Counted from the first letter of the stretch, positions 6,503 through 48,760 are shown. The stretch: DNA of 64,000 bases from an uncultured Chitinophagaceae bacterium (GCA_964600785.1 CAZRKH010000048.1:7926-71925); one strand, 5' to 3'. Notes: generated by a model from the letters alone, not told the origin. Numbers and translations are program-made.

Positions 6503-6526
6503 AAGAAACGTTCCCCAGGAAGACGC

Positions 6527-8483: not shown

Positions 8484-8500
8484 CTGGCCCGCACGGCATC

Positions 8501-8516
8501 AGCCCGCCTGCGGGCT
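8501..8516. terminator. Short GC palindrome between convergent yebC and the cytochrome gene
   Basis: AGCCCGC-CT-GCGGGCT read directly. There is no clear U-tract and it touches the cytochrome stop codon. Confidence 0.25.
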
Positions 8517-10096
8517 CACTCGTCCGTCTCGGAATGGGCGACCGAGGGCCAGTATTCCTCGAAGTCAAACTCGGGGCTGTTGTCGAGGTCGTGGCATTCC
8601 AGGCAGTTGTTGATCGTCCGCTGCCGGCCCTCGGGAGTGTCGATCGTCATCGCCAGTTCGGCCCGCAGACGGTCGCGTTCGACCTCTTTGACCTCGACCT
8701 CGCCGAGCTCCACCGCCACATGGTCGGCCGCCGGCCCGTGGCAGTTCTCACAGCCCTGATGGACCAGCTGGGGCGTTGCCTCGCGGCTCACAAAGCCCCC
8801 GTCGTAGGGCTCGAACTTCTGCGGCGCCCAGCCGACGACGTGGCAGGAGAGGCACTCAGGATCGTGGTCCCGCCGTGGGTCGGCCTGCTCGAGGGTGTCG
8901 AGGGCGGTCGCATGCGGGGTCTGCTCCCAGACCTCGTAGGCGTAGTCGTGGCAGTCGGCGCAGGCCTCGCTGCCGGCAAAACGGCGGCCGGTCGGGTGCC
9001 GGACGGGGGCCAGTTCCAGCCCCTTGGGCCCGAGCGTCTCCAATTGCACCTGGTAGCTCCCCAGCAGGCGGATCATGTCGGCCGATTCACCCCAGCGGGC
9101 ATCCAGCGGCACCCGCTGCACCCGGATTGGCTGCCGCTGGTCGTCGAAAAATCCGACGACCACCGCGTACATCCCCTTGTGGCCAAGCTCGAGCAGCCGC
9201 CGCCTGCCACCCTCCAGGGCCTGGGGTACCATGGGGGGTTCGTCGGCGCCCCCGGCGGTGGCCACCAGGTCGAACCGCGCGAAGCGGTCGGCGAGTGTGC
9301 GGGTGGCGTCGATCGAGGCCCAACACAGCAGCACCTGGTGGTCGCATTTCGCCGCAGCCAGTCGCGGCTCGACCTCCTCGAGGGCCTTGGCGGCCGACTT
9401 CAGTTCGAGGGAATCGTTGCGGATCGACTCGCCCGCCTCGTCGCCGAGTACGCTCGTGACACCGATCCGCAGGCCGCCCACCTCGACCACGCGAAATCGC
9501 GGTGTGATCCCGGCATCGAGCCCGAGCAGGCCGACGTTGGCGCTCACAAACGGTGTCGGCTCGTCGCCCACCGCCGCCACGGCGGCCACGAGTTCCTCGG
9601 CCGGGAGCCGCAGGTCGTCGGGGCCGAAGCCGACCGCACAATAGTCCATCTCGCGGAGCCCGTCGGCGATCGACTGAAACTTCACTTCCGCCTGCCGACC
9701 GAACCGCCGCACCTGATTGCCGAGATCGAATGCCACGCTCGGCCAGCCGACCGTGGCGAGGGCCCGCAGGAAGTTCTGCCGCCGGCTGAGCCCCCCCTTC
9801 TGGTTCTCCTTGCCGGTGCAGCCGCAGGGCTCGATGTAGCCCTCGAGTTCACCGGTGAACACGATCACCGCGCGAGGCTTTTCCCAGCCCTCGAAAACGG
9901 CACCGTTGCGTCGGCGGTAGGTGTCGGCAAGCAGTTCGGCGGTTTCCGGGCCGCGGTCGGGGATGGCCGACTCGTTCGCCATGGCCCGCGGCGGGCCGCC
10001 TGCCGCAATCGCCGTCACGATCGCCGTCAGGAGCATCGAAATCCGGACGGCCGCGGCCTGCGGGCGTGGCGACAGCATCAGGGCGACGGGCGGCAT
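8516..10096 (-). CDS. Secreted tetrahaem cytochrome c fused to a calcineurin/5'-nucleotidase-like domain
   Basis: ATG at 10096 gives a signal-like N-terminus (MPPVALMLSPRPQAAAVRISMLLTAIVTAIAAGGPPRAMA). The C-terminal third has four CxxCH motifs (CADCH, CLSCH, CENCH, CLECH). The N-terminal part carries GELEGYIEPCGC where metallophosphoesterases have metal ligands. Confidence 0.8.
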   Translation of the reverse strand: MPPVALMLSPRPQAAAVRISMLLTAIVTAIAAGGPPRAMANESAIPDRGPETAELLADTYRRRNGAVFEGWEKPRAVIVFTGELEGYIEPCGCTGKENQKGGLSRRQNFLRALATVGWPSVAFDLGNQVRRFGRQAEVKFQSIADGLREMDYCAVGFGPDDLRLPAEELVAAVAAVGDEPTPFVSANVGLLGLDAGITPRFRVVEVGGLRIGVTSVLGDEAGESIRNDSLELKSAAKALEEVEPRLAAAKCDHQVLLCWASIDATRTLADRFARFDLVATAGGADEPPMVPQALEGGRRRLLELGHKGMYAVVVGFFDDQRQPIRVQRVPLDARWGESADMIRLLGSYQVQLETLGPKGLELAPVRHPTGRRFAGSEACADCHDYAYEVWEQTPHATALDTLEQADPRRDHDPECLSCHVVGWAPQKFEPYDGGFVSREATPQLVHQGCENCHGPAADHVAVELGEVEVKEVERDRLRAELAMTIDTPEGRQRTINNCLECHDLDNSPEFDFEEYWPSVAHSETDE

Positions 10097-10131
10097 CGAT
10101 GGCACCTTGGAGTGTCGTGGCGGCTGCCGGC

Positions 10132-11364
10132 TCAGGGGCCGACGGCGATCCGTACGGGGATGGTCATGGTCGGGGCGTCGGGATGCTGTGTCCGCAGGAC
10201 GATCCGTCCGGCCGGCGCGAGCTTGGTCCCTAGATGATTGCACGGCGGGCTCCCCGGGGGAATGGAGATTGTCAGCGGAAGCCGCACGACCGAACCGCTT
10301 CCGACCGCCGCCGGTTCGCCCACCTCGACGACCATGCACGACGGCACGAGTTCCTCGACCTCCACCGAAAATTCATCGGCGGCCGCGCCCCTGGCGGTCA
10401 GGAAAATCCGGCCCCGAAAGCCTCTCGCCGAGGCCACGCTGCCGATCGAGAGAAGTTGGCGGCCGGAGTCCCAGCCGCTGCCGGCGACGGCAATCTCGCC
10501 CCGCACGCTGCCCTCGACGGGAATCTCGACGATGGTGGCCCGCCCGGAAGCGGTTTCTCCCTCGGCTGCGGTGCCCCCGGCAGCCCCCTCGCCCGGCTCA
10601 CCGCAGACATAGCCGACCTCCAGCACGCCACGGAACGGGCCCAGCGGCAGCGGCGGCCGAGTGGTCAGGTTGATGCTCAATCCGCCGGTTGCCCCCGCGT
10701 GGCCTTCGATCTCCCCGGCGGGAAGTTCGGCCGCCTCGAAGCCGAGGAAGCCCGGCTCGGCATCACCGCCGCCCTCCCCCCGCCACCGCAGGCTCTCGAC
10801 GCGTGGCGGCTCGTCGCCGTGGGTGAAGATTCGCACCGGCACCGATTCCTCGCTGGCCACGGCCAGCTTGCTGAACACGACCCGTGGCGGTACGACCTCA
10901 AAGGTGGGAATCACCCGGCCTTCGACCACGAACGCCACCTCGGACCGACGGGGATCACTGGTGAGGATCGTGGCCTGCTGCCGAAACGCCCCTCCCCCGC
11001 CCTTCGCCGTCCACTCGAGCGTCACCGTGGCGGACTCACCGGGCGGAACCTCGCTGCGATCCAGACCGCTGATCGTGCAGGTGCAGGAGGTGGCTCCCTT
11101 CTCGAGCGTCAACGGGCTGCCACCGGTGTTGGTGATGGTGAAGCGATGGCTCTGCGACTGCCCGCTGCCGAGGCCGCCGAAGTCGAAGCGGGTTTCCTTC
11201 ACCTCAGCCCGGGGGGCCGATTCGGGGACATCGCCGACATCGACAAAGCCTCCAACCCGCAGCGGCCGCAGCAGTGATTCGCTGACCGCGATCCCACCGC
11301 CCACCACAATCCCTGCGACTGACGCCACGCAGGCCACCGCGAGGCTGCTCGGAGTCGGTTTCAT
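10132..11364 (-). CDS. DUF1573-like (Ig-like repeat) membrane-anchored protein
   Basis: ATG at 11364 gives MKPTPSSLAVACVASVAGIVVGGGIAV (signal or anchor). RFDFGGLGSGQSQSHRFTITNTGGSPLTLEKGATSCTCT matches the DUF1573 CxC motif. It lies 36 bp upstream of the cytochrome gene on the same strand. Confidence 0.72.
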   Translation of the reverse strand: MKPTPSSLAVACVASVAGIVVGGGIAVSESLLRPLRVGGFVDVGDVPESAPRAEVKETRFDFGGLGSGQSQSHRFTITNTGGSPLTLEKGATSCTCTISGLDRSEVPPGESATVTLEWTAKGGGGAFRQQATILTSDPRRSEVAFVVEGRVIPTFEVVPPRVVFSKLAVASEESVPVRIFTHGDEPPRVESLRWRGEGGGDAEPGFLGFEAAELPAGEIEGHAGATGGLSINLTTRPPLPLGPFRGVLEVGYVCGEPGEGAAGGTAAEGETASGRATIVEIPVEGSVRGEIAVAGSGWDSGRQLLSIGSVASARGFRGRIFLTARGAAADEFSVEVEELVPSCMVVEVGEPAAVGSGSVVRLPLTISIPPGSPPCNHLGTKLAPAGRIVLRTQHPDAPTMTIPVRIAVGP

Positions 11365-23786: not shown

Positions 23787-23875
23787 TACCAACCCGCCCA
23801 TCAGCGGGGCGGCGGGGAATAATCGGCGGATCCGCAAGGGAATAGGCTTTCACTCGACGGGCCCGTTCGGCCAGG

Positions 23876-24460
23876 ATGCGAAGCGTGCCTGACAAGAGCC
23901 CCCTCGGTGAAGGCGACTCCCGCCAGGCTGTGGCTCGGTTCGAGGACTGGGCTGACAGGCACCTGGAGTCGCTCTACAGACTGGCCTACCGCCTGCTGGG
24001 CAACGGCCACGATGCGGAGGATGTTGTGCAGGAGACCTTTCGTTCAGCATGGGCCAGTCGGCAGTTCTTTGACGGCCGGCGGAGCGAACGGGCGTGGCTG
24101 ACCACGATCCTGCGGCGGCGTGTCGCCGATCACTATCGCAAGCGGAGCCGCGGCGAGGCCCCGCTGGGTGAGGCGGTGCATGCGATCACGGCCGCACCGC
24201 AGGCCGATCCCTTTGCCGATGAACTCTCCACAGCCGTGCAGCAGGCGGTCGACCGGCTCCCGCAGGAACTTCGCGAGACGCTGCTGCTGGTCGTGGTCGG
24301 CGAACTGACCCACCAGGAGGCGGCCGACATGCTCGGCGTGCCCCTGGGCACGGTGCTCTCGAGGGTCAGCCGCGGTCGTTCACGGCTGCGGCAATTCCTG
24401 ACCTCGAGTGATGCCGCCGGTCGCAATGTCGATACCCCGCTACCCCGCGGCGGGCGGTAA
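23876..24460 (+). CDS. ECF-type RNA polymerase sigma factor
   Basis: Region 2 (LYRLAYRLLGNGHDAEDVVQETF) and region 4 (LPQELRETLLLVVVGELTHQEAADMLGVPLGTVLSRVSRGRSRL). Confidence 0.9.
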   Translation: MRSVPDKSPLGEGDSRQAVARFEDWADRHLESLYRLAYRLLGNGHDAEDVVQETFRSAWASRQFFDGRRSERAWLTTILRRRVADHYRKRSRGEAPLGEAVHAITAAPQADPFADELSTAVQQAVDRLPQELRETLLLVVVGELTHQEAADMLGVPLGTVLSRVSRGRSRLRQFLTSSDAAGRNVDTPLPRGGR

Positions 24461-24488
24461 CCCCCGAGTCAAACCGCGAGCAAAACCG

Positions 24489-26681
24489 ATGGATCACCAC
24501 GAGAGCTTCAAGCCAGGCGAGCCGGGTGCCGGAAGGTCCGCCGGGCAAAGCCGCCAGCGGACCCGCGAAGGTGGCCCTGAAGACCCTCAGCTGCGGCGGC
24601 TGCTGAAAGTGGAACTGCCCCCGGCGCTGCGGCAGGCGATCACGATTGATCGGCTCTTCGACGATGACGGGGTCGATCGACTGTTGCGGGCGGTCGAGGT
24701 GCCGGCGAATCTCGCCGAGCGGGTCGTCCGCCGTGCCGCCCGGCGGAGCCGCGTGGTCGATCTGGAGGCCGCCGCCTCGAGGGTCGGTCTGCCGAACGGG
24801 CGGAATGCGGTGGCTTCGGCCGGCAGCCCGCGGGCCCTCCGCTGGGCCCGTGAGGTGCTCGCCGACTTTCTCGCTGCGGCCGCCGCGATCGCCGTGATGG
24901 TGGCAGTGGCCGTGGGTTCCTACACCCTGGCCAGGCGGGTCACGGCCGTCGCTCCCGGCCCGGATGCGGTGGTGGCGGTTCCCTCCGCGGTGGCGGCTGC
25001 CGACGGTGACCGGCGGTCGCCCCAATCGCCTGCGCCGGTGGTGGTGGGCCGGAGCGGTCGGGCTGCTGCTCTCCCCGCCGAACCTGTCGCTCCTTCGGCC
25101 GACGCGACGGCTACGTCGCGGCAGCCTTGGCCGGCAGTGACGGAGTTGCCAGATCGGCCGAAAGAGCCCGCAGCGGCTTCCACGCCGATTCTCGCCGCTC
25201 CGAATCGGGATCGATCGGTCGGTCCCGGCGAGATGATGATCGTGCCGGGACCCGCCGAAGTGCCGCGGGTGCCGCGGAGCGGCCGGGGGATCGATCTGGC
25301 ATTCGAGATCACACACGGGGAAGCCTCCCCCGCAAGTCCGGCGGTCGCGGAGGAACTCGCGGTGGACCGGCCTCCCCTGAGCCTGCAGACCGACTCCTTC
25401 GATGCGGCCCTTGCCGCGGCAAGATCCTCAGATCGGTCGGGCCGGGACCTGCTGCGGACCGAGCACCTGCTCGCGGCGATGACACCGGGTCCTTACGCAA
25501 GCGGCCCTCAGGCAAAGCTGCCCGGCGGGGCCACGCTGCACCTGGAGCCGATCGTGACTGAATCGCTGAGGGGTCCGGGCCGCTCGCTCTTGGTGGAACT
25601 CTCGGTAACGGCTGCGGGCCCGCCCCCGCCCGGCGCTGCCAAGGAGTTGATCGTGGTGCTCGATCATTCATCGGCGCCGGGAAATTCGCAGCTCTGGTCG
25701 TCGCTTTTGCGGGGGTTGCGGCTGCTCGCCGGACGGCTGGCAGCGGATGACCGCGTGACACTCATGACCTTTGCCGAGCGGCCGACGACGGTGGTTTCGC
25801 GGGCGTCCGCGGAGCAGTTGGCAGCCGCGATTCACGGCCTCGGGAAACTCGCCCATGGGGGGCTTGCCGACATCGACCGCTGTTTCGAGGCGATCGGCCG
25901 CACGCGGCAGGCGGTGCTCGCCGAATCCGGACGCCGTCCGAGGGTCGTGGTCGTAGCCCACGACGACACGCTGCGGGCGGCATCGGGTGCGGCCGAGGCT
26001 GTCTTCGCCGATTGGCAGGCGGGGCGGGGCTCCGGCGGTGCCGAGCGTGAATGGGAGCGTGAATGGGAATTTGTCTGGATCGATCCCACCGCCGCGGTCG
26101 ACGATGCCTCGGGAAGGGTCGGGATCGATTCGCTGGCGGTTCGTCGTCGGCTGCTCGCCGCGACCACCAGCGGGCGGCCGCTCGTGCGGGACTGCCGTCT
26201 GGAAGTCCACTTCGATCCGGCCACCGTCTCTGCCTACCGGATCGTCGGCTTCCGCATCGACTCAATCGCCCTGCCCGGAGCGTTCGTCCCGCCGGTGGAC
26301 CTCTGTGCCGGCGAGACGGTGCGGGCGGTCTATGAGGTCGTCGCGCGGGGTGAGGATTCCCTCGGGACCGCCGTGCTGCGTTGGCGGGCGTCGGGCTCGG
26401 GCAGTTCCATGAAGAGCCTGCGGGCTGAGATCCCCGCCGCGGCGGCCGGGGCGGTGCCCCGGTGGCATCTGCGGGAGTTGCTGCTCGCCGTGGGCACTGG
26501 CGAACTTGCCGGACGCTCCAAGCTCGCCGGCAGCCTGCCGGATCTCGCCGCGAGCGTCGCCGAGATGGCCGGGCAGTGGGTGGCCGAAGCTGGCCTGACC
26601 GAGGCGGGCGAGGAGTTGTACGAGGTGTTCCTGTCGATCGCCGGGGGCGGACGTGGACAACAGCGGTTCGACCGGCGGTGA
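24489..26681 (+). CDS. Single-pass membrane anti-sigma-like protein with extracytoplasmic vWA (YfbK-like) domain
   Basis: ATG at 24489, 28 bp after the sigma stop. One TM segment (FLAAAAAIAVMVAVAVGSY). vWA-like block ELIVVLDHSSAPG…DRVTLMTFAERPTTV…GGLADI with an incomplete DxSxS, followed by a DUF3520-like C-terminal region. Confidence 0.7.
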   Translation: MDHHESFKPGEPGAGRSAGQSRQRTREGGPEDPQLRRLLKVELPPALRQAITIDRLFDDDGVDRLLRAVEVPANLAERVVRRAARRSRVVDLEAAASRVGLPNGRNAVASAGSPRALRWAREVLADFLAAAAAIAVMVAVAVGSYTLARRVTAVAPGPDAVVAVPSAVAAADGDRRSPQSPAPVVVGRSGRAAALPAEPVAPSADATATSRQPWPAVTELPDRPKEPAAASTPILAAPNRDRSVGPGEMMIVPGPAEVPRVPRSGRGIDLAFEITHGEASPASPAVAEELAVDRPPLSLQTDSFDAALAAARSSDRSGRDLLRTEHLLAAMTPGPYASGPQAKLPGGATLHLEPIVTESLRGPGRSLLVELSVTAAGPPPPGAAKELIVVLDHSSAPGNSQLWSSLLRGLRLLAGRLAADDRVTLMTFAERPTTVVSRASAEQLAAAIHGLGKLAHGGLADIDRCFEAIGRTRQAVLAESGRRPRVVVVAHDDTLRAASGAAEAVFADWQAGRGSGGAEREWEREWEFVWIDPTAAVDDASGRVGIDSLAVRRRLLAATTSGRPLVRDCRLEVHFDPATVSAYRIVGFRIDSIALPGAFVPPVDLCAGETVRAVYEVVARGEDSLGTAVLRWRASGSGSSMKSLRAEIPAAAAGAVPRWHLRELLLAVGTGELAGRSKLAGSLPDLAASVAEMAGQWVAEAGLTEAGEELYEVFLSIAGGGRGQQRFDRR

Positions 26682-26707
26682 TCCTGCCGCCCCGCGAGGG
26701 GTCTCGT

Positions 26708-26736
26708 TTGACGAGTTTTCTTCGGAAAAACACAAT
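26708..26736 (+). promoter_or_regulatory. Sigma-70-like promoter candidate (TTGACG-N17-CACAAT) in an AT-rich island
   Basis: Direct reading: ttgacg agttttcttcggaaaaa cacaat, about 90 bp upstream of the 26825 start. Promoter consensus in this lineage is uncertain. Confidence 0.3.
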
Positions 26737-26751
26737 AGAATTCAGGGACGT

Positions 26752-26781
26752 CGCGGCGGGCTCCATGGCGGCGGGCTCCAT
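26752..26781 (+). repeat. Perfect 15-bp tandem duplication (GCGGCGGGCTCCATG x2)
   Basis: Read directly. It is in-frame with the long ORF and creates two extra ATGs (26765, 26780) upstream of the signal-peptide start. Confidence 0.9.
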
Positions 26782-26824
26782 GTTCGATGCCAGAAGCCGA
26801 CACCCCGGGCCGGACACTCTCACG

Positions 26825-29800
26825 ATGCACCAGGAATTCCACCCCGTCTTGTGCCTGCTGCGGCGGCTGGCAGCCGCCGTGGTGCTCCTGCTTTTTTTGA
26901 CTGTCGCCGGTGGCCACCGGGTGGCGGCTGCCGAGGATGACGCCCCGTCGGTCCGAGAGATCACCGCCCGTCGGCTGCTCGACCGGCTCGAGGAAAAAGA
27001 GTACGCGGACATGATGCTCGCGGTTCTCGACCGCCTCTCGCAGGAGCAGCGAATCTCCGCCGGCCTCAAGCAGGAGATTCCCTTCCGCCGGGCCGTGGCG
27101 TTGGTGCTCGAGAGCCGCACCGAGGCCAACACCGACAAGCGGGCGGCCCAACTTGCCGACGCACGCCAAGCGATCGACGCCTTCCTGGCGAGCAAGCCCT
27201 CCCTCGAGAGCACGGTGGATGCCAACATCCAGCGGGGCAACCTGCTCGTCGAGCAGGGCCGGCTCCTCGTCCGCCAGGCTGACCGGCCCGGCGCCGACAG
27301 CGAGGCGATTCTCGCCAAGGCGGCGCCGTTGCTTGGTGACGCGGTGAAGAGCTTCGTCGCGGCAGAGAATGCCCTCTACACACCCGGTGACGGGGAGCCC
27401 GGCGGTCTGCTCACGAAGCTGCGGAAACAAATCGGCGACCTTCAGGAGGAGGAGAAGACGCTCAAAGAAAACAAAAAGCCACCCGCCGGGATGTCATCCC
27501 TGGAGCGTGGCAAGTTGATTCGCCGGCTCAAAGATGAGATTCCCCGGCTCGTCGAGGAGCAGGATCGCTTCCGCAGCAAACTGTTGCAGGTGCGGCTGCT
27601 GGTGGGCACGGCCGGCTTCGAACTGTCGAGGTCGCTCGAGCCCGGCTCGAAGGCCTGGCGGGAGGCGATCGAGGCCTCTTCAAGTGCCTTTGAGACGATG
27701 TATGAAAAATACCGAACGCTGCTCGCCGGCCAATTCGCCCGTTACTACCAGGGCCGCAACTCGGTGAGCCTGGCCTTCGACCCGCCGTTCGATCCCGACG
27801 ACAAGAAGGCGGCCGAGCAGCGGGAGAAGGATATCGACGCCGCCCTGAACGTGCTTGGCGACCTGCGGCTGCTCGAGGGTGGCGGGCCGATCGCCGACCT
27901 GAGGGCCAAGGCCTTCAACCTCTCGCTGCAGTGCTGGCTGGAGACGCTTCCCGAGGCTGAATACGCCTCCTTCGAGGGTGTCAATCTCGACACCTTGAAG
28001 CTGGCCCTCCCGGAGCTTCCCGATGCCAAGCTCGATGCCGACTGGCTGGGCTTCAAATATCGTCTCGCGGTGATGATCAAGCGGATGGACGAAGCCGCCA
28101 AGGAGGCCAAGGGGTCCGACCGCAATCCGCTGCTCAACTCGGCCGCCAACAGCATCCGGCGGCTGGCGATGCAGGTGGCCAAGGCCAATCGGGAGTTTGC
28201 CGACGAGGCTCGGGATCTGCTCGGAGATCTCCCCGAGGCGGCCGTGGATGAGACCTTCGCGACCCTCATGGACGAGGCGGGCGTCGCGATCACCACGATG
28301 CAGCAGAAGAAGCAGGAGGCGGCCAGCCTCTCCGCCGCGGGCAAGGCGGAGGAGTCGAAGGCCGCCGCCGAAGAGGCGATCAAGTCTCGCGACGGGGCGA
28401 TCGCGGCGATTCGCAAGGCGGTGCCGCTGGCCACCGAGGATGAGGCTGCCGCGGTCAACCGGGCCCGCTACCTGCTCACGTTTTTGATGTACGACAGCGG
28501 CCGTCTCGAGGAGGCGGCGACGGTCGGTGAGTTCCTCGCCCGCTGGTATCCCAACGCCGCCGGCAGCGAGCAGGCGGCGAAGATCGCGATGGCCTCCTGG
28601 CAGAAGCTCGCCAAAAACGATTCGCCCTGGGCCGCCGACGCGATGCGACGCTGCGGGAGGATGGCCGAACGGATTCTCGAGACCTGGCCCGATGGCAGTT
28701 CGGTGGCCGACGCGGCCAACGTGGCGATCGCCGCGGCGGCCGATGCGGAGGATGCCGAGAGGATCGTGGCGATCTTCAAGCGGATGCCCGCCGATTCCCC
28801 GCTGCGTGGACAGGTTGCCCTGCGGGCCGGGCTCTCGCTGTGGAAGCTCGTGACCCAGAAGCGGCGGCTCGAGGGGGAGGGCCGGCCCTCCGACGAGACC
28901 CTCGCCGCCTGGACCGCGGCTGCGGCGGCGGCCTTCGACGAAGGGCTCGCGGCCAGCAAGGGGGGCAACAAGCTCGCCGTGGCCGCGGCGGTGAGTCGCT
29001 GCCAGATCGGCATGGAGGCCGGCGACACCCAGACGGTGGCGGCGGTGCTCGAAAACCCGGCCTACGGGCCCTGGACGGTCGTCACCGCGGAGGGCGGTTC
29101 CTTCTCCAAGGGGCCGGTGGCCGAGGAGATTCTGCGGCTGGCCCTGCGGTTTTTCATCCAGTCCGAGGAGATTCCCAAGGCTGAGGAGGCGATGGCCCGG
29201 CTGGAGGCGGTGGCCGGTGATGCCACCAATCTGACCACGATGTACCTCGCCATGGGCCGGGACCTTCAGGAGCAGCTCGAGGGCATCGTCGGTGCAGGCG
29301 ACGGGGAGGTCAGCGAGCAGGCCAGGGCCAGGGCCCAGAAGATTCTCAGCGGTTTCGAGGCCTTCCTCGATCGCGTGGCGGCCCAGGACGCGAAGGTGTC
29401 CTCTCGGATGTGGGTGGCGACCACCTACCTCACGCTCGGATCCGGCTCGGACGCCGAGGGTTCCGGCGGCATCGCCGCGGTCGTGCCCAAGACGAAGGCC
29501 GACGAATATCTCGGCAAGGCGGCGGCCGTCTATGAAAAACTGCTCGAGAACCCCGGAGACGAGATGGCGAAGTTCGAGCCCTCGATCCGCTTCAAGCTTG
29601 CCGACGTCTACCGCCAGCTCGGCCGTTACGACGAGGCGATGGGCCACCTCGACTGGATTCTCGGAGATTCCAAGCGGGTCAACTGGCGGGATGCCCAGAT
29701 CGAGGCGGCCCGGTTGCTCCAGGATGCCGGCATCGCTTCGGAGAACCCGGGCGAGGCCGAGGAGAAGCTCTCGCTGGCGATCAGTGGCCGCAGGGGCGGC

Positions 29801-30148
29801 CCCGCGGAACTCTGGGGCTGGGGCGGGATCGCCAACAAGCTCTCACGCGTGGCGTTTCGGGGCGATGGCGACGATCCGAAGTCGCGGCAGTTGCGTGACC
29901 AGTTCTTCGATGCCCGGCTGAACCTGGCAAAGTGTCGTCGGGCATTGGCGGAGAAATCCGCCGGCAGCCGGGACGCGATGCTCGACAAAGCAGAACGTGA
30001 CATCGCCATCACCCTGCGGTTCTATCCCGACCTCGGCGGTGAGGTCTTTCGTGAACGCTTTGACAAACTGCTCAAGGAAATCCAGAGGGCCCGCGGCGAC
30101 GAAACCGCCGAGGGGCTGGCTGGTCTCGAGAAAAACCAGGAAAGCTGA
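26825..30148 (+). CDS. Large secreted all-helical / TPR-like repeat protein (1107 aa)
   Basis: ATG at 26825 gives signal-like MHQEFHPVLCLLRRLAAAVVLLLFLTVAGGHRVAAAE. The rest is Ala/Leu/Glu/Lys-rich helical repeat sequence with TPR-like segments (FKLADVYRQLGRYDEAMGHLDWIL). Alternative starts are 26765 and 26780. Confidence 0.75.
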   Translation: MHQEFHPVLCLLRRLAAAVVLLLFLTVAGGHRVAAAEDDAPSVREITARRLLDRLEEKEYADMMLAVLDRLSQEQRISAGLKQEIPFRRAVALVLESRTEANTDKRAAQLADARQAIDAFLASKPSLESTVDANIQRGNLLVEQGRLLVRQADRPGADSEAILAKAAPLLGDAVKSFVAAENALYTPGDGEPGGLLTKLRKQIGDLQEEEKTLKENKKPPAGMSSLERGKLIRRLKDEIPRLVEEQDRFRSKLLQVRLLVGTAGFELSRSLEPGSKAWREAIEASSSAFETMYEKYRTLLAGQFARYYQGRNSVSLAFDPPFDPDDKKAAEQREKDIDAALNVLGDLRLLEGGGPIADLRAKAFNLSLQCWLETLPEAEYASFEGVNLDTLKLALPELPDAKLDADWLGFKYRLAVMIKRMDEAAKEAKGSDRNPLLNSAANSIRRLAMQVAKANREFADEARDLLGDLPEAAVDETFATLMDEAGVAITTMQQKKQEAASLSAAGKAEESKAAAEEAIKSRDGAIAAIRKAVPLATEDEAAAVNRARYLLTFLMYDSGRLEEAATVGEFLARWYPNAAGSEQAAKIAMASWQKLAKNDSPWAADAMRRCGRMAERILETWPDGSSVADAANVAIAAAADAEDAERIVAIFKRMPADSPLRGQVALRAGLSLWKLVTQKRRLEGEGRPSDETLAAWTAAAAAAFDEGLAASKGGNKLAVAAAVSRCQIGMEAGDTQTVAAVLENPAYGPWTVVTAEGGSFSKGPVAEEILRLALRFFIQSEEIPKAEEAMARLEAVAGDATNLTTMYLAMGRDLQEQLEGIVGAGDGEVSEQARARAQKILSGFEAFLDRVAAQDAKVSSRMWVATTYLTLGSGSDAEGSGGIAAVVPKTKADEYLGKAAAVYEKLLENPGDEMAKFEPSIRFKLADVYRQLGRYDEAMGHLDWILGDSKRVNWRDAQIEAARLLQDAGIASENPGEAEEKLSLAISGRRGGPAELWGWGGIANKLSRVAFRGDGDDPKSRQLRDQFFDARLNLAKCRRALAEKSAGSRDAMLDKAERDIAITLRFYPDLGGEVFRERFDKLLKEIQRARGDETAEGLAGLEKNQES

Positions 30149-30152
30149 CGCC

Positions 30153-31277
30153 ATGCCCACGACATCCCTGCCGACGAAGATTTCCCGGGCCGGTCAAGCC
30201 CCGCAGCTGCGGTGGATCGCCTTTGCCGTGCTCGCCCTGCTTGCCGGATCGCCCTCGGCCCGCGCGGTCGACGTGGTCCGTGTGATCGGGGGAACGCGGC
30301 TCTCGGGGACGGTGATCAGCGGCTCACCCAATTCGATCGATCTCGAGCAACGCGGCGGTGACATCGCGTCGATCCCCGTGGAGCAGATCGAGGCGGTGCA
30401 GTTCGACGGCGAGCCCCGCGAGATGACCGATGCCCGCAATCTGCTGGCTCGGGGCCGTCCGGTCGATGCCGCGGCGGAACTGGAGAAGATCGAGCCCGAC
30501 GCTTTCGACGGGGCGCCGCCGCTGGTGCTCGAGGAGCGGGATTACCTTGTCGCGGCGTCGAAGGCGATCTCCGCCCTCCAGGGGACCGGCGAGATCAAGG
30601 AGGCCGGCGGCCTCGCCGCGGGCTTTCTCAAGAAGTATCCGCGGAGTTTTCATACCTACCGGATGGAGGAGATTACGGGTGATTTGCTTGCCGCGATCGG
30701 CAACACGAAGGCGGCCGCGGCCTACTACGGCAAGCTCGCCGAGGGCCCGGCGGCGATGAAGGTGCGGGCGGCGTCGGCCGAGGGGCGGATGCTCCTGGCT
30801 GCCGGTGATTTCAACGGTGCCGCAGCCGCCTTCGGCAAGGCCCGTGGCGTGCCCTCCCCGCCGGCTGCCGGCGGGGACGAGGCGGCTCAGAACGCGGCCG
30901 AGGTGGTCGATGCCCAGAAGCGGATGGCGTCGGTCGGGCTCGCCCGAGCCCAGGTCGGCCTCGGCAAGCAGGACGAGGCCGTGGCCACGATCAACCAGGT
31001 GATCGACGCGGCGAGCCCGGAGGATCACGATCTCCTCGGCCCCGCCTACAACGCCCTGGGGGAAGCCGAGGCGGCGCGGGGGAAAATCCCCGACGCCCTG
31101 ATCGCGTACCTCACCGTCGATCTCGTCTACAACTCGAATCCACAGGCCCATGCGGAGGCTCTGGCAAATCTCGCCGAACTCTGGGAGAAATCGAAGCAGC
31201 CCGAGCGTTCCCGGCAGGCCCGGGCTATGCTCAAGTCGAGCTATCCGACGAGCCGTTGGGCCAAGCAGGCGGGCTGA
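30153..31277 (+). CDS. Secreted protein: short beta-rich N-module + TPR-like helical repeats (374 aa)
   Basis: ATG at 30153, 4 bp after the previous stop. Signal LRWIAFAVLALLAGSPSARA. TPR-like segments (LLGPAYNALGEAEAARGKIPDALIAYLTVDLVY). Confidence 0.75.
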   Translation: MPTTSLPTKISRAGQAPQLRWIAFAVLALLAGSPSARAVDVVRVIGGTRLSGTVISGSPNSIDLEQRGGDIASIPVEQIEAVQFDGEPREMTDARNLLARGRPVDAAAELEKIEPDAFDGAPPLVLEERDYLVAASKAISALQGTGEIKEAGGLAAGFLKKYPRSFHTYRMEEITGDLLAAIGNTKAAAAYYGKLAEGPAAMKVRAASAEGRMLLAAGDFNGAAAAFGKARGVPSPPAAGGDEAAQNAAEVVDAQKRMASVGLARAQVGLGKQDEAVATINQVIDAASPEDHDLLGPAYNALGEAEAARGKIPDALIAYLTVDLVYNSNPQAHAEALANLAELWEKSKQPERSRQARAMLKSSYPTSRWAKQAG

Positions 31278-31336
31278 CACAAGACAGGAATTCACAGGCC
31301 GGAGCGACTCCGGCGGACCACGAGGAGCAGATAAGC

Positions 31337-32203
31337 ATGCGGCACGACGACAACGAGGGTGCGACGATGAAGCGAGCCAAAACGGGACGGTGTGGCCGGC
31401 GGGTGGTGGCCTGGTGGCTGGCGGCGATCCTCGCCGTGTCGGCATTGGCCCCGCCGGAGATGGTCGCCTGGCTGCCGGTCGGCCCGGCGTCTGCCGTTGC
31501 CCAGGATGGCGGCTTCGCTGACCCGGGCCCGCCGCCTTCCATGGACGATGGGGGCGGTGACTCGGAGGGCGGCGGTGAGAACCTCCTGATGTTCTTCGCC
31601 CGTTCGCTGGGCATGGTCTTCGCGACGGTGTTTCTGCTCCTTTCTTTCGCCCTGGTGTCGCTGGTGGTGATGTGCTTCTTGCAGCTTCGCCGTTCGGCTC
31701 TGATGCCGCCTGACCTTTCGGAGCAGTTTGAGGAGCACCTCGCCAACAAGCAGTACCAGGAAGCCTATGAACTCGCCAAGAACGACGATTCCTATCTCGG
31801 CCACGTGCTCTCCGCCGGCATTATCAAACTCCAGGGCGGCTTCAGTCAGGCCCTCGAAGCGATGCAGGAGGCCGAGGCCGATGAGGGCATGCGGCTGGAG
31901 CACAAGATCAGCTACGTCGCCCTGATTGGAGCCCTTTCGCCGATGTTCGGGCTGCTCGGCACGGTGAACGGCATGGTCTCCAGCTTCATGGTCATCGCCC
32001 AGTCGACGACGGCTCCCAAGCCGACCGAACTGGCCGCCGGTATCTCGACGGCTCTGGTGACCACGCTCGTGGGGCTGTGGCTGGCGATCCCGGCCGTGGC
32101 CGCCTTTGCGATGTTCAAAAACTGGCTGCAGCGGCTCAATTCCGACGTCGACGCCGAGGCGATGCGGCTGATGGGCCGCTTCCAGGGGGGCGGCAAGAAG
32201 TAG
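31337..32203 (+). CDS. exbB: MotA/TolQ/ExbB-family proton channel
   Basis: C-terminal half LIGALSPMFGLLGTVNGMVSSF…AGISTALVTTLVGLWLAIPAVAAFAMFKN is canonical ExbB/TolQ. GAGGAG lies upstream of ATG 31337. ATG 31367 is an alternative start. Confidence 0.9.
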   Translation: MRHDDNEGATMKRAKTGRCGRRVVAWWLAAILAVSALAPPEMVAWLPVGPASAVAQDGGFADPGPPPSMDDGGGDSEGGGENLLMFFARSLGMVFATVFLLLSFALVSLVVMCFLQLRRSALMPPDLSEQFEEHLANKQYQEAYELAKNDDSYLGHVLSAGIIKLQGGFSQALEAMQEAEADEGMRLEHKISYVALIGALSPMFGLLGTVNGMVSSFMVIAQSTTAPKPTELAAGISTALVTTLVGLWLAIPAVAAFAMFKNWLQRLNSDVDAEAMRLMGRFQGGGKK

Positions 32204-32221
32204 CGGGAAACGGAGCAAGCG

Positions 32222-32665
32222 ATGGCGAAGCGGAAGAGCGAAGGCCCGTCGATGGTCGACATCGACATGACGCCGATGATCGACATGACCTTCCAGTTGA
32301 TCGCGTTTTTCATGTTTGTGGTCAACTTCTCGGAAGCGGAGCAGGACGATCGCATCCAGCTGCCCTCGAGCCAGCTCGCCAAGCCGGCCGAGGCGCCGTT
32401 TGACACTCCGATCACCCTTCAGCTCACCGACCAGGGATCGGTCGTCTACTCAGGGGAGCTGTTTGAGATGGGCTCCCTTGGCAGCATGCTCGAGCGGGAA
32501 AAGTCGGCGATCCTCGATGCCGGCAAGGAGCCGGTGGCGGCCACGGTGATCGTGCGGGCCGACGGCCGGAGCAAGACCGGGCAGGTGCAGGAGATCATCC
32601 GAGTCTGCCAGGAGAAGGGTTTTGAGAAATTCGCCCTGCGGGCCAAGTACGACGAGGGTGGGTAG
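32222..32665 (+). CDS. exbD: ExbD/TolR-family protein 1
   Basis: DMTPMIDMTFQLIAFFMFV with the conserved TM Asp; typical ~147-aa size. Confidence 0.9.
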   Translation: MAKRKSEGPSMVDIDMTPMIDMTFQLIAFFMFVVNFSEAEQDDRIQLPSSQLAKPAEAPFDTPITLQLTDQGSVVYSGELFEMGSLGSMLEREKSAILDAGKEPVAATVIVRADGRSKTGQVQEIIRVCQEKGFEKFALRAKYDEGG

Positions 32666-32669
32666 ACCG

Positions 32670-33173
32670 ATGGAAGGAACAGACGACACACCACGGGAGC
32701 GGAAGAAGTCGGAACTGGCCGACAAGATCGACATCAACATGACCCCGATGATCGACATCGTCTTCCAGCTTCTCGCCTTCTTCATCATGTCGCTGAAGAT
32801 CGTCCAGCCGGAGGGCGACTTCGACGTCCGCATGCCCCTGGGTGCTGCGGCGGCCGCGGCCCCGGACGACGACCAGATTCCCCCGATTCGAATCCGGCTG
32901 ATGTCGGGCGGTGACGGGCTCGCCGGCATTTCGATGAATGGCAGCCCGGTGGGTGATTTCGACGAATTACGGGAGAAGGTCATCGGTCTGGTGGGAACCA
33001 ACTCCGGCCCCAATTCCCTGGCCGACAAGACCGAGGTTGAACTCGACTGCGACTATTCCCTGCCCTACCGCTATGTCGTCAACGCGATCTCGGCGGTCTC
33101 CGGCAAGGTGCAGGATGGGCAGGTGATCGAACTGATCAAGAAGATCAAGTTCGCCCCGCCAAAGAAGCGCTAG
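32670..33173 (+). CDS. exbD: ExbD/TolR-family protein 2
   Basis: ATG at 32670, 4 bp after exbD-1. INMTPMIDIVFQLLAFFIM with the conserved Asp. Confidence 0.9.
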   Translation: MEGTDDTPRERKKSELADKIDINMTPMIDIVFQLLAFFIMSLKIVQPEGDFDVRMPLGAAAAAAPDDDQIPPIRIRLMSGGDGLAGISMNGSPVGDFDELREKVIGLVGTNSGPNSLADKTEVELDCDYSLPYRYVVNAISAVSGKVQDGQVIELIKKIKFAPPKKR

Positions 33174-33198
33174 CGGCCCAAGTAGTCCGGTGCGGCTC

Positions 33199-33361
33199 GC
33201 ACCGGCACAGCCGGTTGCAACGCAACCGGCCTACTGAGCCCGCACCGGCACAGCCGGTTGCAGCGCAACCGGCCTACTGAGCCCGCGCCGGCACAGCCGG
33301 TTGCAGCGCAACCGGCCTACTGAGCCCGCACCGGCACAGCCGGTTGCAGCGCAACCGGCCT
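33199..33361. repeat. 43-bp tandem repeat, ~3.8 copies, each carrying a perfect 8-bp-stem hairpin
   Basis: Unit GCACCGGCACAGCCGGTTGCAGCGCAACCGGCCTACTGAGCCC starts at 33199, 33242, 33285 and 33328. The internal palindrome is CCGGTTGC-N3-GCAACCGG. A separate hairpin CCGGTGCG-GCT-CGCACCGG sits at 33187-33205. The array lies in the convergent exbD/xer spacer. Confidence 0.95.
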
Positions 33362-48190: not shown

Positions 48191-48760
48191 ATGAAATGCC
48201 AGCAGTGCGACAAAGTGGCCGTTTTTCACATCACCGAACTCGAGGAGGGCGGTGTCCGCGAACTGCACCTCTGCGAAGACCATGCACGCGGCTACCTGAC
48301 CCAAGCCGAGCCGGTCGCCGGAGAGCCGAAGTCATCGACCGGGGGGGCGATCTCGGGCCCCCTCTCGGTGAGCCACACCGCCGACGAACTCGCCGCCCTC
48401 GACCAGAAACAGTGCAGCATGTGCGGGATCACCTTTTTCGAATTCCGCAACCAGGGGCGGCTTGGCTGCCCGCACGACTACGCCCAGTTCGAGAAGGAGC
48501 TGGAACCGCTGATCTCCAACATCCACGGGGCGACCGAGCATGTCGGCCGCAGGCCTCGCCGGTATCCCGAGGGCACCGAGTCGCTGACGCGGGCGATCGG
48601 GATGCGGCGCGAGATGCAGCAGGCGGTGGAGTGCGAAGACTACGAGCACGCCGGCAGACTGCGGGACACCCTCAGGAAAATTGACGAGACGGTCCGCGGG
48701 TCGGCCGATCCGCCCGCTGATGCCGCCGGTTCGCAGGGAGGGTCTGGCGGTGGCGAATGA
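48191..48760 (+). CDS. mcsA: McsA-like protein (two Cys4 zinc fingers + UVR motif)
   Basis: MKCQQCDKVAVFHITE…LHLCEDH and CSMCGITFFEFRNQGRLGCPHDY, with UVR-like MRREMQQAVECEDYEHAGRLRDTL. Lies immediately upstream of mcsB. Confidence 0.78.
   Translation: MKCQQCDKVAVFHITELEEGGVRELHLCEDHARGYLTQAEPVAGEPKSSTGGAISGPLSVSHTADELAALDQKQCSMCGITFFEFRNQGRLGCPHDYAQFEKELEPLISNIHGATEHVGRRPRRYPEGTESLTRAIGMRREMQQAVECEDYEHAGRLRDTLRKIDETVRGSADPPADAAGSQGGSGGGE

Follow-up and report, generated by a model that had tools for sequence, protein, structure and literature searches.

The window (the whole 64-kb stretch of DNA that was analysed) carries a five-gene operon that is devoid of any TonB or TolA gene and that, because it associates an ExbB/ExbD-type motor with two secreted helical-repeat proteins, probably powers some uncharacterised cell-envelope process. 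The best reading of the sequence is that these five genes, encoding a big solenoid protein, a TPR protein, ExbB, ExbD and a second ExbD, are the functional unit and that a housekeeping ExbB5-ExbD1/ExbD2 motor works with a periplasmic TPR scaffold. The interpretation as a whole, i.e. an operon with its own sigma-70-type promoter whose 5:2 motor and periplasmic TPR scaffold would fulfil a core envelope function comparable to that of Tol-Pal, is considered here to be rather probable.

Organization of the locus

The coordinates confirm the layout given in an earlier note on this DNA, i.e. seven genes on the same strand separated by spacers of 28, 143, 4, 59, 18 and 4 bp. According to the annotation of the window ORFs, the flanks of the operon carry serC, serA, xer and metH. 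The features are as follows.

23816..23843, + strand: ECF-type promoter-like motif GGAATAAT-N14-GGGAAT, 5' of the sigma gene
23876..24460, + strand: ECF sigma factor of the accessory unit, 194 aa (Pfam/NCBIfam)
24489..26681, + strand: putative single-pass anti-sigma factor, vWA/YfbK_C protein, 730 aa (Pfam matches VWA_2, YfbK_C)
26708..26736, + strand: core promoter, sigma-70-type, TTGACG-N17-CACAAT (pattern conserved upstream of the big gene)
26825..30148, + strand: core gene 1, "big" protein, 1107 aa, secreted all-alpha TPR-like solenoid
30153..31277, + strand: core gene 2, TPR protein, 374 aa, secreted, SH3-like beta module of five strands, then a TPR solenoid
31337..32203, + strand: core gene 3, predicted pentamer subunit of the ExbB/TolQ family; signal peptide, then an N-extension that is acidic and periplasmic
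32222..32665, + strand: core gene 4, ExbD/TolR-family subunit 1, 147 aa, transmembrane Asp
32670..33173, + strand: core gene 5, ExbD/TolR-family subunit 2, 167 aa, transmembrane Asp
about 33195..33361, unstranded: four tandem 43-nt units with a GCCGGTTGC-AGC-GCAACCGGC hairpin, located where the ExbD2 and xer genes converge

Conservation and distribution of the five-gene core

A homologue search found the big protein encoded in 107 species-level genomes. The earlier note had treated the locus as a seven-gene unit and had asked whether this order is conserved across related genomes; only the five-gene core proved constant, being complete and in order in all the related genome loci that have enough flank (51/51), and it is this core that is the unit, the sigma and vWA pair being missing from 30 of 64 loci. 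The five genes were also found in unrelated neighbourhoods at 22–29% identity (loci L003, L005, L087, L088, L090 and L091); the L003 contig ends after ExbB and the five other distant loci show the whole core. L001, at 37% identity, keeps both the core and the window's own flanks, and the distant locus L089 possesses the big and TPR genes with no ExbB or ExbD gene adjoining. Synteny between the repeat-protein genes and exbBD, whose lack elsewhere would have spoken against the earlier proposal, is strict in the 51 loci, and the co-occurrence of the core genes is far beyond chance. As for the claim that the two repeat proteins are the partners of the stator, they are indeed its obligate genomic partners in the 51 loci and in the five distant ones, this evidence bearing on gene association and not on a physical or force-transmitting role.

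The big-protein family comprises 3,226 cluster representatives at E≤1e-3, of which 1,347 remain at E≤1e-30. All the source names checked are planctomycetal or unassigned, and the labels are those of hypothetical or TPR proteins of Planctomycetota. Judging from these sequences, the five-gene operon is spread across Planctomycetota; it is near-universal in the window clade, where it lies among housekeeping genes.

The ExbB-ExbD-ExbD motor

The ExbB protein matches Pfam MotA_ExbB (3.3e-25); its best NCBIfam match is TolQ (78.7 bits), followed by ExbB (62.2 bits), both scores lying far under the equivalog cut-offs. Among solved sequences, that of E. coli ExbB is the closest (5sv0, E 2.5e-12), its residues 119-220 aligning with the window protein; the Thr ring is retained and E176, the Glu of transmembrane helix 3 in E. 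coli, is replaced by Thr. Both ExbD proteins match Pfam ExbD (8.2e-20 for subunit 1 and 1.7e-15 for subunit 2). The transmembrane Asp previously noticed in each ExbD helix (MIDMTF, MIDIVF) was seen again and is kept in seven distant orthologues of each protein. The surrounding motif D(M/L)TPMIDxxFQLI is kept in the seven orthologues of ExbD1; those of ExbD2 display MTPMID(I/V)VFQLL and, at the C-terminus, a conserved tail (I/L)xx(K/R)I(K/R)(F/L), which is KIKFAPP in the window protein. From family membership, ExbB would be exported N-out after cleavage of its signal peptide and form a pentameric proton channel, and one ExbD1 and one ExbD2, each with a protonatable transmembrane Asp, would form the inner heterodimer of a 5:2 motor (ExbB5-ExbD1/ExbD2) driven by the proton-motive force.

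No TonB_C, TolA, Plug or TonB_dep_Rec domain was found in the repeat proteins or in any other window ORF scanned, in agreement with the earlier note. Similarly, none of the eight annotated loci (L001, L003, L005, L087, L088, L089, L090 and L091) contains a gene for TonB, TolA or a TonB-dependent receptor, and genes for TolB, Pal or a peptidoglycan-binding partner are lacking near the operon. The DNA inspected for TonB and TolA comprises the 64-kb window and ±10 kb around the related loci. Since tonB is often unlinked to exbBD and co-occurs infrequently with exbB-exbD (PMC12204202), a single locus does not suffice to claim independence from TonB.

The two secreted repeat proteins

Both repeat proteins (1107 and 374 aa) display hydrophobic signal peptides with A-x-A sites and yield helical-repeat models, which bears out their initial description. 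Cleavable signal peptides are found family-wide, and both proteins are predicted to be cleaved, soluble and periplasmic. The 1107-aa protein matched no Pfam or NCBIfam family; its AlphaFold2 model (pLDDT 84) is helical throughout (46 helices), and Foldseek retrieved only long TPR scaffolds. The model of the 374-aa protein (pLDDT 91.6) shows a five-strand beta module (residues 40-83) followed by a TPR solenoid, with generic TPR matches in Foldseek. This protein harbours an invariant LTVDLV motif, inside a YLTVDLVYN consensus, and is weakly similar to the TPR region of CpoB/YbgF (TIGR02795, 8.3e-06, 26 bits versus a cut-off of 90; PDB profile match 6g5s, 1.5e-06). The PDB matches of both proteins are TPR or solenoid scaffolds only. 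The absence of a TonB or TolA domain from either of them, at first judged by eye, held in Pfam, in the PDB profile search and in Foldseek searches with the confident AlphaFold models. Furthermore, neither carries a membrane anchor or a recognisable motor-binding element. Strict synteny and the analogy with GltD/GltE, CpoB and PflA/PflB suggest that the two soluble proteins may form a periplasmic scaffold receiving or positioning the motor output. As neither is anchored, coupling would have to proceed via the periplasmic domains of the two ExbD proteins, via the acidic tail at the ExbB N-terminus, or via a membrane transducer whose gene lies elsewhere.

The sigma/vWA accessory unit and the promoters

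The ECF sigma factor was identified by Pfam (Sigma70_r2, 8.7e-19; Sigma70_r4_2, 4.9e-13) and NCBIfam (TIGR02937 sigma70-ECF, 2.3e-25). The vWA protein comprises a conserved cytoplasmic N-domain of ~60 aa, with an N-terminal motif kept in distant loci, a transmembrane helix (~141-165), a Pro/Ala-rich linker (16% Pro) and a predicted periplasmic YfbK-like vWF_A/VWA/YfbK_C module. Its matches to VWA_2 (5e-05, 24.3 bits) and YfbK_C (1.9e-04, 22.1 bits) are both slightly under the Pfam cut-offs, and its orthologues from L003 and L091 match these domains more strongly; no known anti-sigma domain was detected in it. YfbK_C is the present name of what we take to be DUF3520 (PF12034). In architecture, the pair resembles the ECF289 group, whose anti-sigma factor is, in the part of Casas-Pastor et al. 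2021 (PMC7826278) that concerns it, a membrane protein with vWA and DUF3520 encoded after the ECF sigma factor; the linkage to an ExbBDD/TPR operon seen here is, however, not described for ECF289 in that part.

The pair is present in 34/64 loci, presence and absence being interleaved on the tree, and it adjoins the core not only in the window clade but also in L003 and L091, the three lineages being divergent. Because it recurs beside the core in the distant L003 and L091, it is likely to be functionally linked to the core somehow. The ECF sigma factor and its vWA/YfbK_C anti-sigma-like partner probably constitute a separate, autoregulated and dispensable sensory unit that has been repeatedly lost.

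In 1.39 Mb of related loci, the motif GGAATARY-N12-16-GNGAAY is matched 14 times, always <300 bp upstream of a sigma gene and also in the distant L003; the window contains only one match. The pattern TTGACN-N16-18-NANAAT precedes the big gene in 59/62 clade loci, whether the sigma gene is present or not, and has a single match in the 64-kb window, both strands considered; a hairpin followed by a T-run (26703-26722) overlaps this core promoter. The five-gene operon would be transcribed from this sigma-70-type, constitutive-type promoter of its own. Direct cell-surface-signalling control of the machine, as put forward earlier, is thus unsupported, because the ECF-type motif is confined to the DNA upstream of the sigma gene and the core promoter is the same with or without sigma.

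Probable role and alternative explanations

The near-universality of the operon in the clade, its housekeeping neighbours and its constitutive-type promoter make a core envelope function most likely, more so than a niche-specific uptake system. At the weakest step of the proposed mechanism, the motor and its scaffold would coordinate or stabilise the outer membrane, the wall and the inner membrane, in a manner comparable to Tol-Pal.

The ExbB-ExbD-ExbD proteins could be an ordinary Ton/Tol energiser driving a canonical TonB or TolA encoded elsewhere, the TPR proteins being accessory periplasmic factors, like the products of the TPR genes that come after exbBD-tonB operons in other phyla. This would fit the infrequent co-occurrence of tonB with exbB-exbD (PMC12204202), the extent of the DNA inspected (the window and ±10 kb of related loci) and the presence in P. 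limnophila of at least four ExbB-ExbD-ExbD triads (PMC10632474 supplement), which implies that different triads may have different partners. However, it is rendered unlikely by the synteny with two large secreted proteins in 51/51 loci, kept across very divergent lineages, by the lack of TonB_C, TolA, Plug and TonB_dep_Rec domains in any annotated locus, by ExbB scores far under the ExbB and TolQ equivalog cut-offs and by the Thr that replaces the Glu of transmembrane helix 3. The vWA protein is an improbable candidate for the missing force transducer, in which case the pull of the motor would also free the ECF sigma factor (a motor-gated anti-sigma factor); its kinship with the vWA transducers proposed for PVC bacteria is just as doubtful. 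It does resemble TonB in topology (N-terminus inside, a single transmembrane helix, 16%-Pro linker, globular YfbK-like vWA head), it carries YfbK-like domains, as do the membrane-tethered vWA proteins encoded beside TPR-tolQ-tolR-tolR that are proposed as transducers in the PVC section of PMC12204202, and its gene and that of sigma adjoin the core in the window clade, L003 and L091. Yet it is absent from 30/64 loci and from L001, L005, L087, L088 and L090, all of which bear the core; a conserved His or SHLS motif is lacking in its transmembrane helix, the Asp close to this helix is not kept in L003 or L091, its promoter is separate from that of the core, and its architecture fits a known ECF/anti-sigma group, ECF289 (PMC7826278).

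A system truly related to the Agl-Glt (or Nfs) core of Myxococcus, with big as GltD, TPR as GltE and ExbB/ExbD/ExbD as AglR/Q/S, acting in gliding or envelope trafficking, would share its five-component parts list (PMC3169522, PMC11761067): a periplasmic TPR-rich signal-peptide protein of ~1,100-1,200 aa, a TPR protein of medium size, a TolQ-like subunit and a pair of TolR-like ones, GltD itself being described as a periplasmic pillar with a central TPR region between helical domains. Such kinship is nevertheless very improbable: the published core also includes GltG (a TonB-like, AglR-binding transducer) and GltC (PMC3169522), neither of which occurs in any locus, Planctomycetes are unmentioned in the taxonomic survey of that paper, Foldseek matches are generic, the likeness lying in composition alone, and many carriers are lake and freshwater MAGs, where gliding would be unexpected. 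Finally, most loci come from one clade sharing the serC, serA, xer and metH flanks, as would be expected if adjacency were inherited synteny without functional meaning and the TPR and motor genes were unrelated neighbours; this is hardly credible, since the five genes stay joined in L003, L005, L087, L088, L090 and L091, where the flanks have wholly changed, and share tight spacers (4–59 bp) and one conserved promoter. The distant loci already contradict it.

Relationships with known systems

The closest published relative, likened by description, is the PVC "TPR-tolQ-tolR-tolR-vWA" cluster of the same superphylum, which has two heterologous tolR-like genes and an unknown function according to section 8 and Fig. 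4a of Williams-Jones et al. (Mol Biol Evol 2025, PMC12204202). In both, a nearby gene encodes a YfbK-like vWA protein that is tethered to the membrane and has a disordered linker rich in Pro. However, the ~1,100-aa secreted solenoid protein, invariant here, is unmentioned in that section for PVC clusters. Furthermore, the vWA gene is upstream and paired with an ECF sigma gene here, whereas it is downstream in the PVC clusters described there; it is dispensable here, being missing in about half of the loci, and its product has a cytoplasmic anti-sigma-like N-domain and no SHLS/His motif.

The operon shares with Tol-Pal (TolQ-TolR-TolA-TolB-Pal-CpoB) a predicted 5:2 TolQ/TolR-type motor, TolQ being the best NCBIfam match of ExbB, a secreted TPR protein weakly similar to CpoB TPR, a housekeeping genomic context and a constitutive-type promoter. 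It differs by the lack of TolA, TolB and Pal, by two distinct TolR-like subunits instead of a homodimer, and by the signal peptide and periplasmic extension of its ExbB, all of whose scores are far below equivalog cut-offs. The basis for a Tol-like role lies in the housekeeping context and in a weak, generic similarity to CpoB TPR. The MotA_ExbB and ExbD domains, transmembrane Asp and Thr ring are those of the ExbB-ExbD-TonB energiser; nevertheless, the locus lacks TonB and TonB-dependent receptor, Thr replaces E. coli E176, the ExbD pair would be a heterodimer and the motor is obligately linked to two secreted TPR proteins.

Compared by composition alone, the Agl-Glt system (AglR/Q/S and GltD/E/G/C; Luciano et al. 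2011, PMC3169522) likewise combines one TolQ-like and two TolR-like subunits with two periplasmic TPR proteins, one of them very large and the other of medium size, and its core complex is also found, as a single cluster with unknown function, in non-gliding bacteria (PMC3169522). The operon, however, lacks GltC and GltG (a TonB-like, motor-binding transmembrane protein), and A-x-A signal-peptidase-I sites are found here, whereas GltD and GltE are predicted to be lipoproteins with Cys1 as their first residue (PMC11761067). PflA and PflB of the Campylobacter flagellar stator are also TPR-rich periplasmic proteins positioning a 5:2 stator, and PDB 9hmf_K is among the Foldseek matches of both repeat proteins, but with low TM-scores (0.12-0.49), at the level of any TPR protein, and there is no flagellar context here.

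The 3' hairpin array

The unusual terminal hairpin array reported at the end of the locus is real: each of its four 43-nt tandem units has a 9-bp stem. The hairpin motif has 8 matches in the window (4 sites × both strands), all inside the array, for 0 expected. This array is probably a bidirectional terminator or a REP-like array.

Organization and conservation of the module

The seven co-directional genes at 23876-33173 encode an ECF sigma factor, a 730-aa vWA protein, a protein of 1107 aa (the big protein, encoded by big), a 374-aa TPR protein, an ExbB and two ExbDs (ExbD1 and ExbD2). The ORF boundaries and the spacers of 28, 143, 4, 59, 18 and 4 bp that the earlier note had read by eye proved to be exact. 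The Pfam and NCBIfam matches comprise an ECF sigma factor, VWA_2 and YfbK_C in the 730-aa protein, one MotA_ExbB and two ExbD, with faint TPR matches alone in the 1107- and 374-aa proteins. As also read by eye, a signal peptide is present at the N-terminus of each of the two repeat proteins, a transmembrane Asp is present in both ExbDs and four tandem 43-nt hairpin units close the block. The main features are as follows.

23816-23843, ECF-type motif GGAATAAT-N14-GGGAAT, upstream of the sigma gene
23876-33173 (+), block of seven genes (sigma, vWA, big, TPR, ExbB, ExbD1, ExbD2)
26708-26736, core promoter TTGACG-N17-CACAAT, inside the 143-bp spacer upstream of big
31337-32203 (+), ExbB gene
33195-33361, hairpin array between the convergent ExbD2 and xer genes: four 43-nt units, each with a perfect 9-bp stem, GCCGGTTGC-AGC-GCAACCGGC

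The hairpin motif is confined to the array, with no other match in the window (G+C content of about 68%), and the array is likely a bidirectional terminator or a REP-like element. The other ORFs of the window are housekeeping genes, including nusA, infB, proS, gcvH, serC, serA, xer, metH, trpE and alaS.

A word-indexed search retrieved 24 close relatives of the 1107-aa protein. A scan for related loci, carried out on one genome per species with an alignment of 11 closer sequences, found the big protein encoded in 107 genomes; 80 of these loci were retained, all of them from Planctomycetota MAGs. Eleven local proteins were then compared by tblastn with 86 loci, the counts given here resting on L007-L086. 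The gene order of the clade is serC - serA - [sigma - vWA] - big - TPR - ExbB - ExbD - ExbD - xer(-) - metH(-). The comparison of gene order across related genomes, which the earlier note had suggested, found the four genes following big in this order in every locus with at least 3.3 kb downstream of big (51/51), so that the linkage of the core genes is directly supported. The sigma and vWA pair is present in 34 loci, and serA lies directly upstream of big in 30.

As most clade loci share their flanks, they could on their own mean nothing more than inherited synteny, and it is the distant relatives (identities of the big protein taken from its broad alignment, A4) that decide. L091 (27% identity) carries the sigma and vWA genes followed by all five core genes, and L003 (23% identity) carries sigma, vWA, one extra gene, big, TPR and ExbB, at which point the contig stops. 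Four other loci (L005, L087, L088 and L090; 22-28% identity) carry the five genes without sigma in entirely different neighbourhoods, and L001 (37% identity) carries the five genes without sigma while keeping the serA and xer/metH flanks of the window. Since the core is kept in wholly different neighbourhoods, the conserved functional unit consists of five genes, big-TPR-ExbB-ExbD-ExbD. The seven-gene unit proposed in the earlier note is therefore not borne out, the sigma and vWA genes being dispensable. The five-gene module is real, strongly conserved and essentially uncharacterised.

The size of the big-protein family was revealed by an exhaustive profile search of representatives (50%-identity clusters), which gave 3,226 representatives at E<=1e-3 and 1,347 at E<=1e-30, and not by the word-indexed search with the A4 profile, whose single new match was weak and partial (P0248, 6% of the query covered). 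Most of the best 150 among the 3,226 representatives are full-length proteins of about 1,000-1,360 aa, the remainder being shorter fragments. In 20 sampled clusters, the names do not go beyond "hypothetical protein" or "TPR repeat protein" (MAG-derived) and the sources are Planctomycetota, Pirellulales, Planctomycetaceae or unassigned bacteria.

Two distant loci show additional arrangements. In L003, the extra gene (8354-9535) encodes a 393-aa protein without any Pfam match; it lies between vWA and big and was found in that distant locus only. In L089 (8001-15558), big and TPR are present with no motor adjacent to them, and one protein similar to prenyltransferases/squalene-hopene cyclases and one NPCBM-domain protein replace ExbB and ExbD; this is the sole case seen of the big/TPR pair apart from the motor.

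Transcription units and the accessory sigma/vWA pair

The core promoter is not restricted to loci carrying the sigma gene. Indeed, the equivalent site carries a TTGACN-N16-18-NANAAT motif in 30 of 31 sigma-bearing loci and in 29 of 31 devoid of sigma, and the 64-kb window has no second match to this motif on either strand. As the motif is kept with and without sigma, the core has its own constitutive-type promoter, separate from the sigma operon and irrespective of the ECF sigma factor. In the window, a hairpin followed by a T-run directly after the vWA stop codon overlaps the -35 box of this promoter. The ECF-type motif belongs to the sigma operon alone: in its generalised form, it has 14 matches in 1.39 Mb of loci, all less than 300 bp upstream of sigma, L003 included. 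Transcription of the core by the ECF sigma factor from a dedicated promoter was therefore rejected, and the control of the machine by this factor, as put forward in the earlier note, is not supported. In one subclade (L024-L036 and L048), the region upstream of sigma carries a variant motif, GTTYCNGG...GCGAATG, instead of GGAATAAT...GGGAAT; a shared CGAAT element may be the -10 box of the ECF promoter.

A neighbour-joining tree built on the big protein shows sigma-bearing loci interleaved with loci that lack the gene. L019, for example, carries sigma and its sister L018 does not, and the window carries it while none of its sisters L054, L012 and L039 does. Since the pair is interleaved on the tree and is also found in the distant loci L003 and L091, an old association followed by repeated loss is the simplest reading. 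In L081, the 741-bp spacer between serA and big (9287-10027) includes neither sigma nor vWA, yet it starts with GTTCTGG...GCGAATC, the same element that precedes sigma in sister loci; this spacer looks like a deletion scar, which would be consistent with repeated loss of the pair.

The vWA protein, a putative anti-sigma factor, is composed of a cytoplasmic N-terminal domain of about 60 aa, conserved and common to the window, L003 and L091, one transmembrane helix devoid of any conserved His, a variable linker rich in Pro and Ala (with 16% Pro in the window) and a YfbK-like vWF_A/VWA/YfbK_C head. Neither an anti-sigma domain in the N-terminal domain nor any domain in the linker was detected by Pfam, even at E<=10. 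YfbK_C is, as we take it, the present name of DUF3520. In the literature, an ECF sigma factor associated with an anti-sigma factor carrying vWA plus DUF3520 is the hallmark of group ECF289 (PMC7826278). Here too, the ECF sigma gene adjoins a gene encoding a membrane protein with vWA and DUF3520/YfbK_C, this comparison being one of architecture and not of sigma phylogeny.

The ExbB and ExbD motor subunits

ExbB matches MotA_ExbB (PF01618, 3.3e-25), and ExbD1 and ExbD2 match PF02472 (8.2e-20 and 1.7e-15, respectively). ExbB aligns with residues 119-220 of E. coli ExbB, with GTVNG and TT versus GTVWG and AT at the positions of the Thr ring, and this polar ring of the last two transmembrane helices is conserved in 8 orthologues. 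ExbD1 and ExbD2 are distinct conserved paralogues, each with an Asp where its single transmembrane helix begins, and conservation of the corresponding motifs, MIDMTF and MIDIVF, extends to all distant orthologues. These proteins therefore belong to the ExbB/TolQ/MotA - ExbD/TolR motor family and possess its catalytic residues.

They are nevertheless far below every ExbB, TolQ, ExbD and TolR equivalog cut-off, i.e. the NCBIfam score required for assignment to a named protein: ExbB scores 62.2 bits versus 206.2 for TIGR02797 (exbB) and 78.7 versus 221 for TolQ, and ExbD scores 30.1 versus 152.95 for TIGR02803 and 40.7 versus 127.3 for TolR. Furthermore, residue E176, located in transmembrane helix 3 (GIAEAL), is functionally important in E. 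coli ExbB; the motif is GISTAL here, with a Thr at the E176 position. Eight distant orthologues keep this Thr, so that the proton path or a partner contact may have changed in a way specific to the family. All ExbB orthologues also carry a signal peptide ending in AQD or AQE, followed by an acidic extension. ExbD2 has no sequence match in the PDB, and the kinship of ExbD1 to designer PPR proteins indicated by phmmer was rejected, these scores being sums of sub-threshold repeats.

The two secreted repeat proteins

The model of the 374-aa protein is confident (pLDDT 91.6) and shows, after the signal peptide, a five-strand SH3-like beta module (40-83) and a TPR solenoid ending in an invariant LTVDLV. 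Foldseek and a PDB profile search retrieved generic TPR proteins only, CpoB being the sole envelope-specific match (1.5e-06), and the score for the YbgF/CpoB equivalog is 26.4 bits versus a cut-off of 90.1. The beta module has a faint match to designed SH3 proteins and no Pfam match at E<=10.

The model of the 1107-aa protein (pLDDT 84) comprises 46 helices, and its structural matches are long TPR scaffolds (Ski3, IFT-A, Ctr9 and the PflB-like 9hmf_K) with low TM-scores. In the big family, a cleavable A-x-A signal peptide directly abuts the conserved mature N-terminus FLxGLRxRxYxD; the protein therefore lacks a membrane anchor, a lipobox and an SHLS helix. Membrane anchoring of the big protein, or a TonB-like SHLS helix in it, was therefore rejected, all family members having cleavable signal peptides. 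The export signals of both partners are thus directly supported. The view of the earlier note that these secreted proteins are partners of a stator without an adjacent TonB gene is plausible and backed by synteny.

Relationships with known motor-driven systems

Neither the seven proteins, in agreement with the earlier note, nor some 30 further ORFs covering the window gave a match to a TonB_C, TolA, Plug or TonB-dependent-receptor domain. The annotated related loci are also devoid of TonB_C and, like the window, of any match to PF07715 or PF00593; a TonB or receptor gene adjacent to orthologous loci, which the earlier note had named as evidence against its reading, was found in none of them. 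Concerning Tol-Pal, neither TolA, TolB nor Pal is encoded in the window or in related loci. The defining partners and the equivalog scores both place the module outside the Ton and Tol-Pal systems.

The resemblance to the Agl-Glt core of Myxococcus, drawn in the earlier note, is real as a parts list (PMC3169522, PMC11761067): here likewise, one TolQ-like subunit is associated with two distinct TolR-like subunits, a likeness of composition only. However, Agl-Glt includes the TonB-like transducer GltG and also GltC (PMC3169522), and the module has neither. Indeed, neither a transmembrane Pro-rich TonB_C protein nor a third TPR gene was found in the conserved five-gene core of the window and related loci. 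Foldseek and HMM searches of the PDB, which holds no GltD or GltE, gave generic TPR matches for the big and TPR proteins.

The closest published description of the module is a "TPR - tolQ-like - two tolR-like - vWA" cluster reported in the PVC group (Williams-Jones et al. 2025, PMC12204202). Like this cluster, the module carries a TPR gene directly upstream of a tolQ-like and two heterologous tolR-like genes, with a YfbK-like tethered vWA neighbour. Unlike the cluster as described there, it includes a second secreted solenoid, giant and invariant, and its vWA gene, which lies upstream and is paired with an ECF sigma gene, encodes a transmembrane helix without the SHLS/His motor-binding motif and is dispensable (absent in 30/64 loci).

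Motor-based phage defence of the Zorya type was rejected: the PADLOC match to ZorA is weak (E 8e-05, 19 bits) and corresponds to the shared MotA/ExbB channel region, and PADLOC gave no match for the other six proteins, which rules out a known defence system.

Some data are available for motor genes of cultivated planctomycetes, which are not necessarily orthologues of those of the module. In R. baltica, exbB and exbD respond to a salt shift (PMC2754498). The supplement of PMC10632474 lists at least four ExbB-ExbD-ExbD triads in the genetically tractable Planctopirus limnophila (Plim_1696-98, 3131-33, 3760-62 and 3805-07) and, in a paralogue table, gives one of five ExbB and one of three ExbD as essential.

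Possible mechanism and significance

The module would be a 5:2 motor system whose set of partners is unusual, the main uncertainty being a possible TonB-like anchor encoded elsewhere in the genome. To our knowledge, in all characterised systems the 5:2 motors of the ExbBD/TolQR type act on the outer layers by way of a transducer anchored in the membrane, such as TonB, TolA or GltG. Most surveyed Planctomycetota are without detectable TonB or TonB-dependent receptors, yet they keep several ExbB-ExbD-ExbD sets.

ExbB5 and ExbD1/ExbD2 would form a 5:2 motor driven by the proton-motive force, and the two soluble solenoids would assemble into a scaffold in the periplasm, where the output of the motor is taken up or positioned. 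This coupling could involve the periplasmic domains of the ExbDs, the N-tail of ExbB or an unlinked transducer. The least secure proposal is that the machine might serve the envelope in a core, Tol-like function rather than act as a conditional uptake system; the housekeeping context, the constitutive-type promoter and the retention across the clade point in this direction. A bolder version, which we hold to be rather improbable, is that the solenoids themselves transmit force, as a periplasm-spanning TPR pillar engaged by ExbD1/ExbD2 or by the ExbB N-tail, with no tether of the TonB/TolA type. If this were true, the pillar would be a new class of output for 5:2 proton motors and could energise envelope biology specific to planctomycetes, for instance the upkeep of the enlarged periplasm or the import of macromolecules, and the ECF/vWA unit would be an optional sensor of the state of the machine.

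With the present results, one planctomycete ExbB-ExbD-ExbD set gains an invariant pair of partners, the two secreted TPR solenoids. Its promoter is now defined, its distribution spans the phylum and an ECF/vWA unit is its optional sensor, and the annotation "biopolymer transport protein" gives way to a testable five-gene machine. If the solenoids replace TonB/TolA, inner-membrane energy would cross the periplasm by a new route, and the module would offer a way into the unusual envelope of planctomycetes. Even with a hidden TonB-like anchor, planctomycetes would have in this module their first counterpart of the periplasmic scaffolds of the Glt/Tol type.

Additional observations

Three other ORFs of the window deserve mention. 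The product of ORF 6503-7699 (+) has no Pfam match and its C-terminal third is a Lys/Pro/Ala-rich, histone-H1-like tail; as it has no transmembrane helix, it was ruled out as a TonB candidate. A multihaem cytochrome c554/c7-like protein (8516-10372, -) and an ATP:guanido phosphotransferase (McsB/arginine-kinase-like; 48588-49883, +) are encoded amid the housekeeping genes.

Many of the MAGs that carry the module (L017, L018, L023, L025, L026 and others) bear the name "Candidatus Kuenenia stuttgartiensis" or "Planctomicrobium piriforme". Yet their serA is 80-84% identical to that of loci assigned to Pirellulales, with which they are fully syntenic, and the public taxonomic labels of such MAGs look unreliable.
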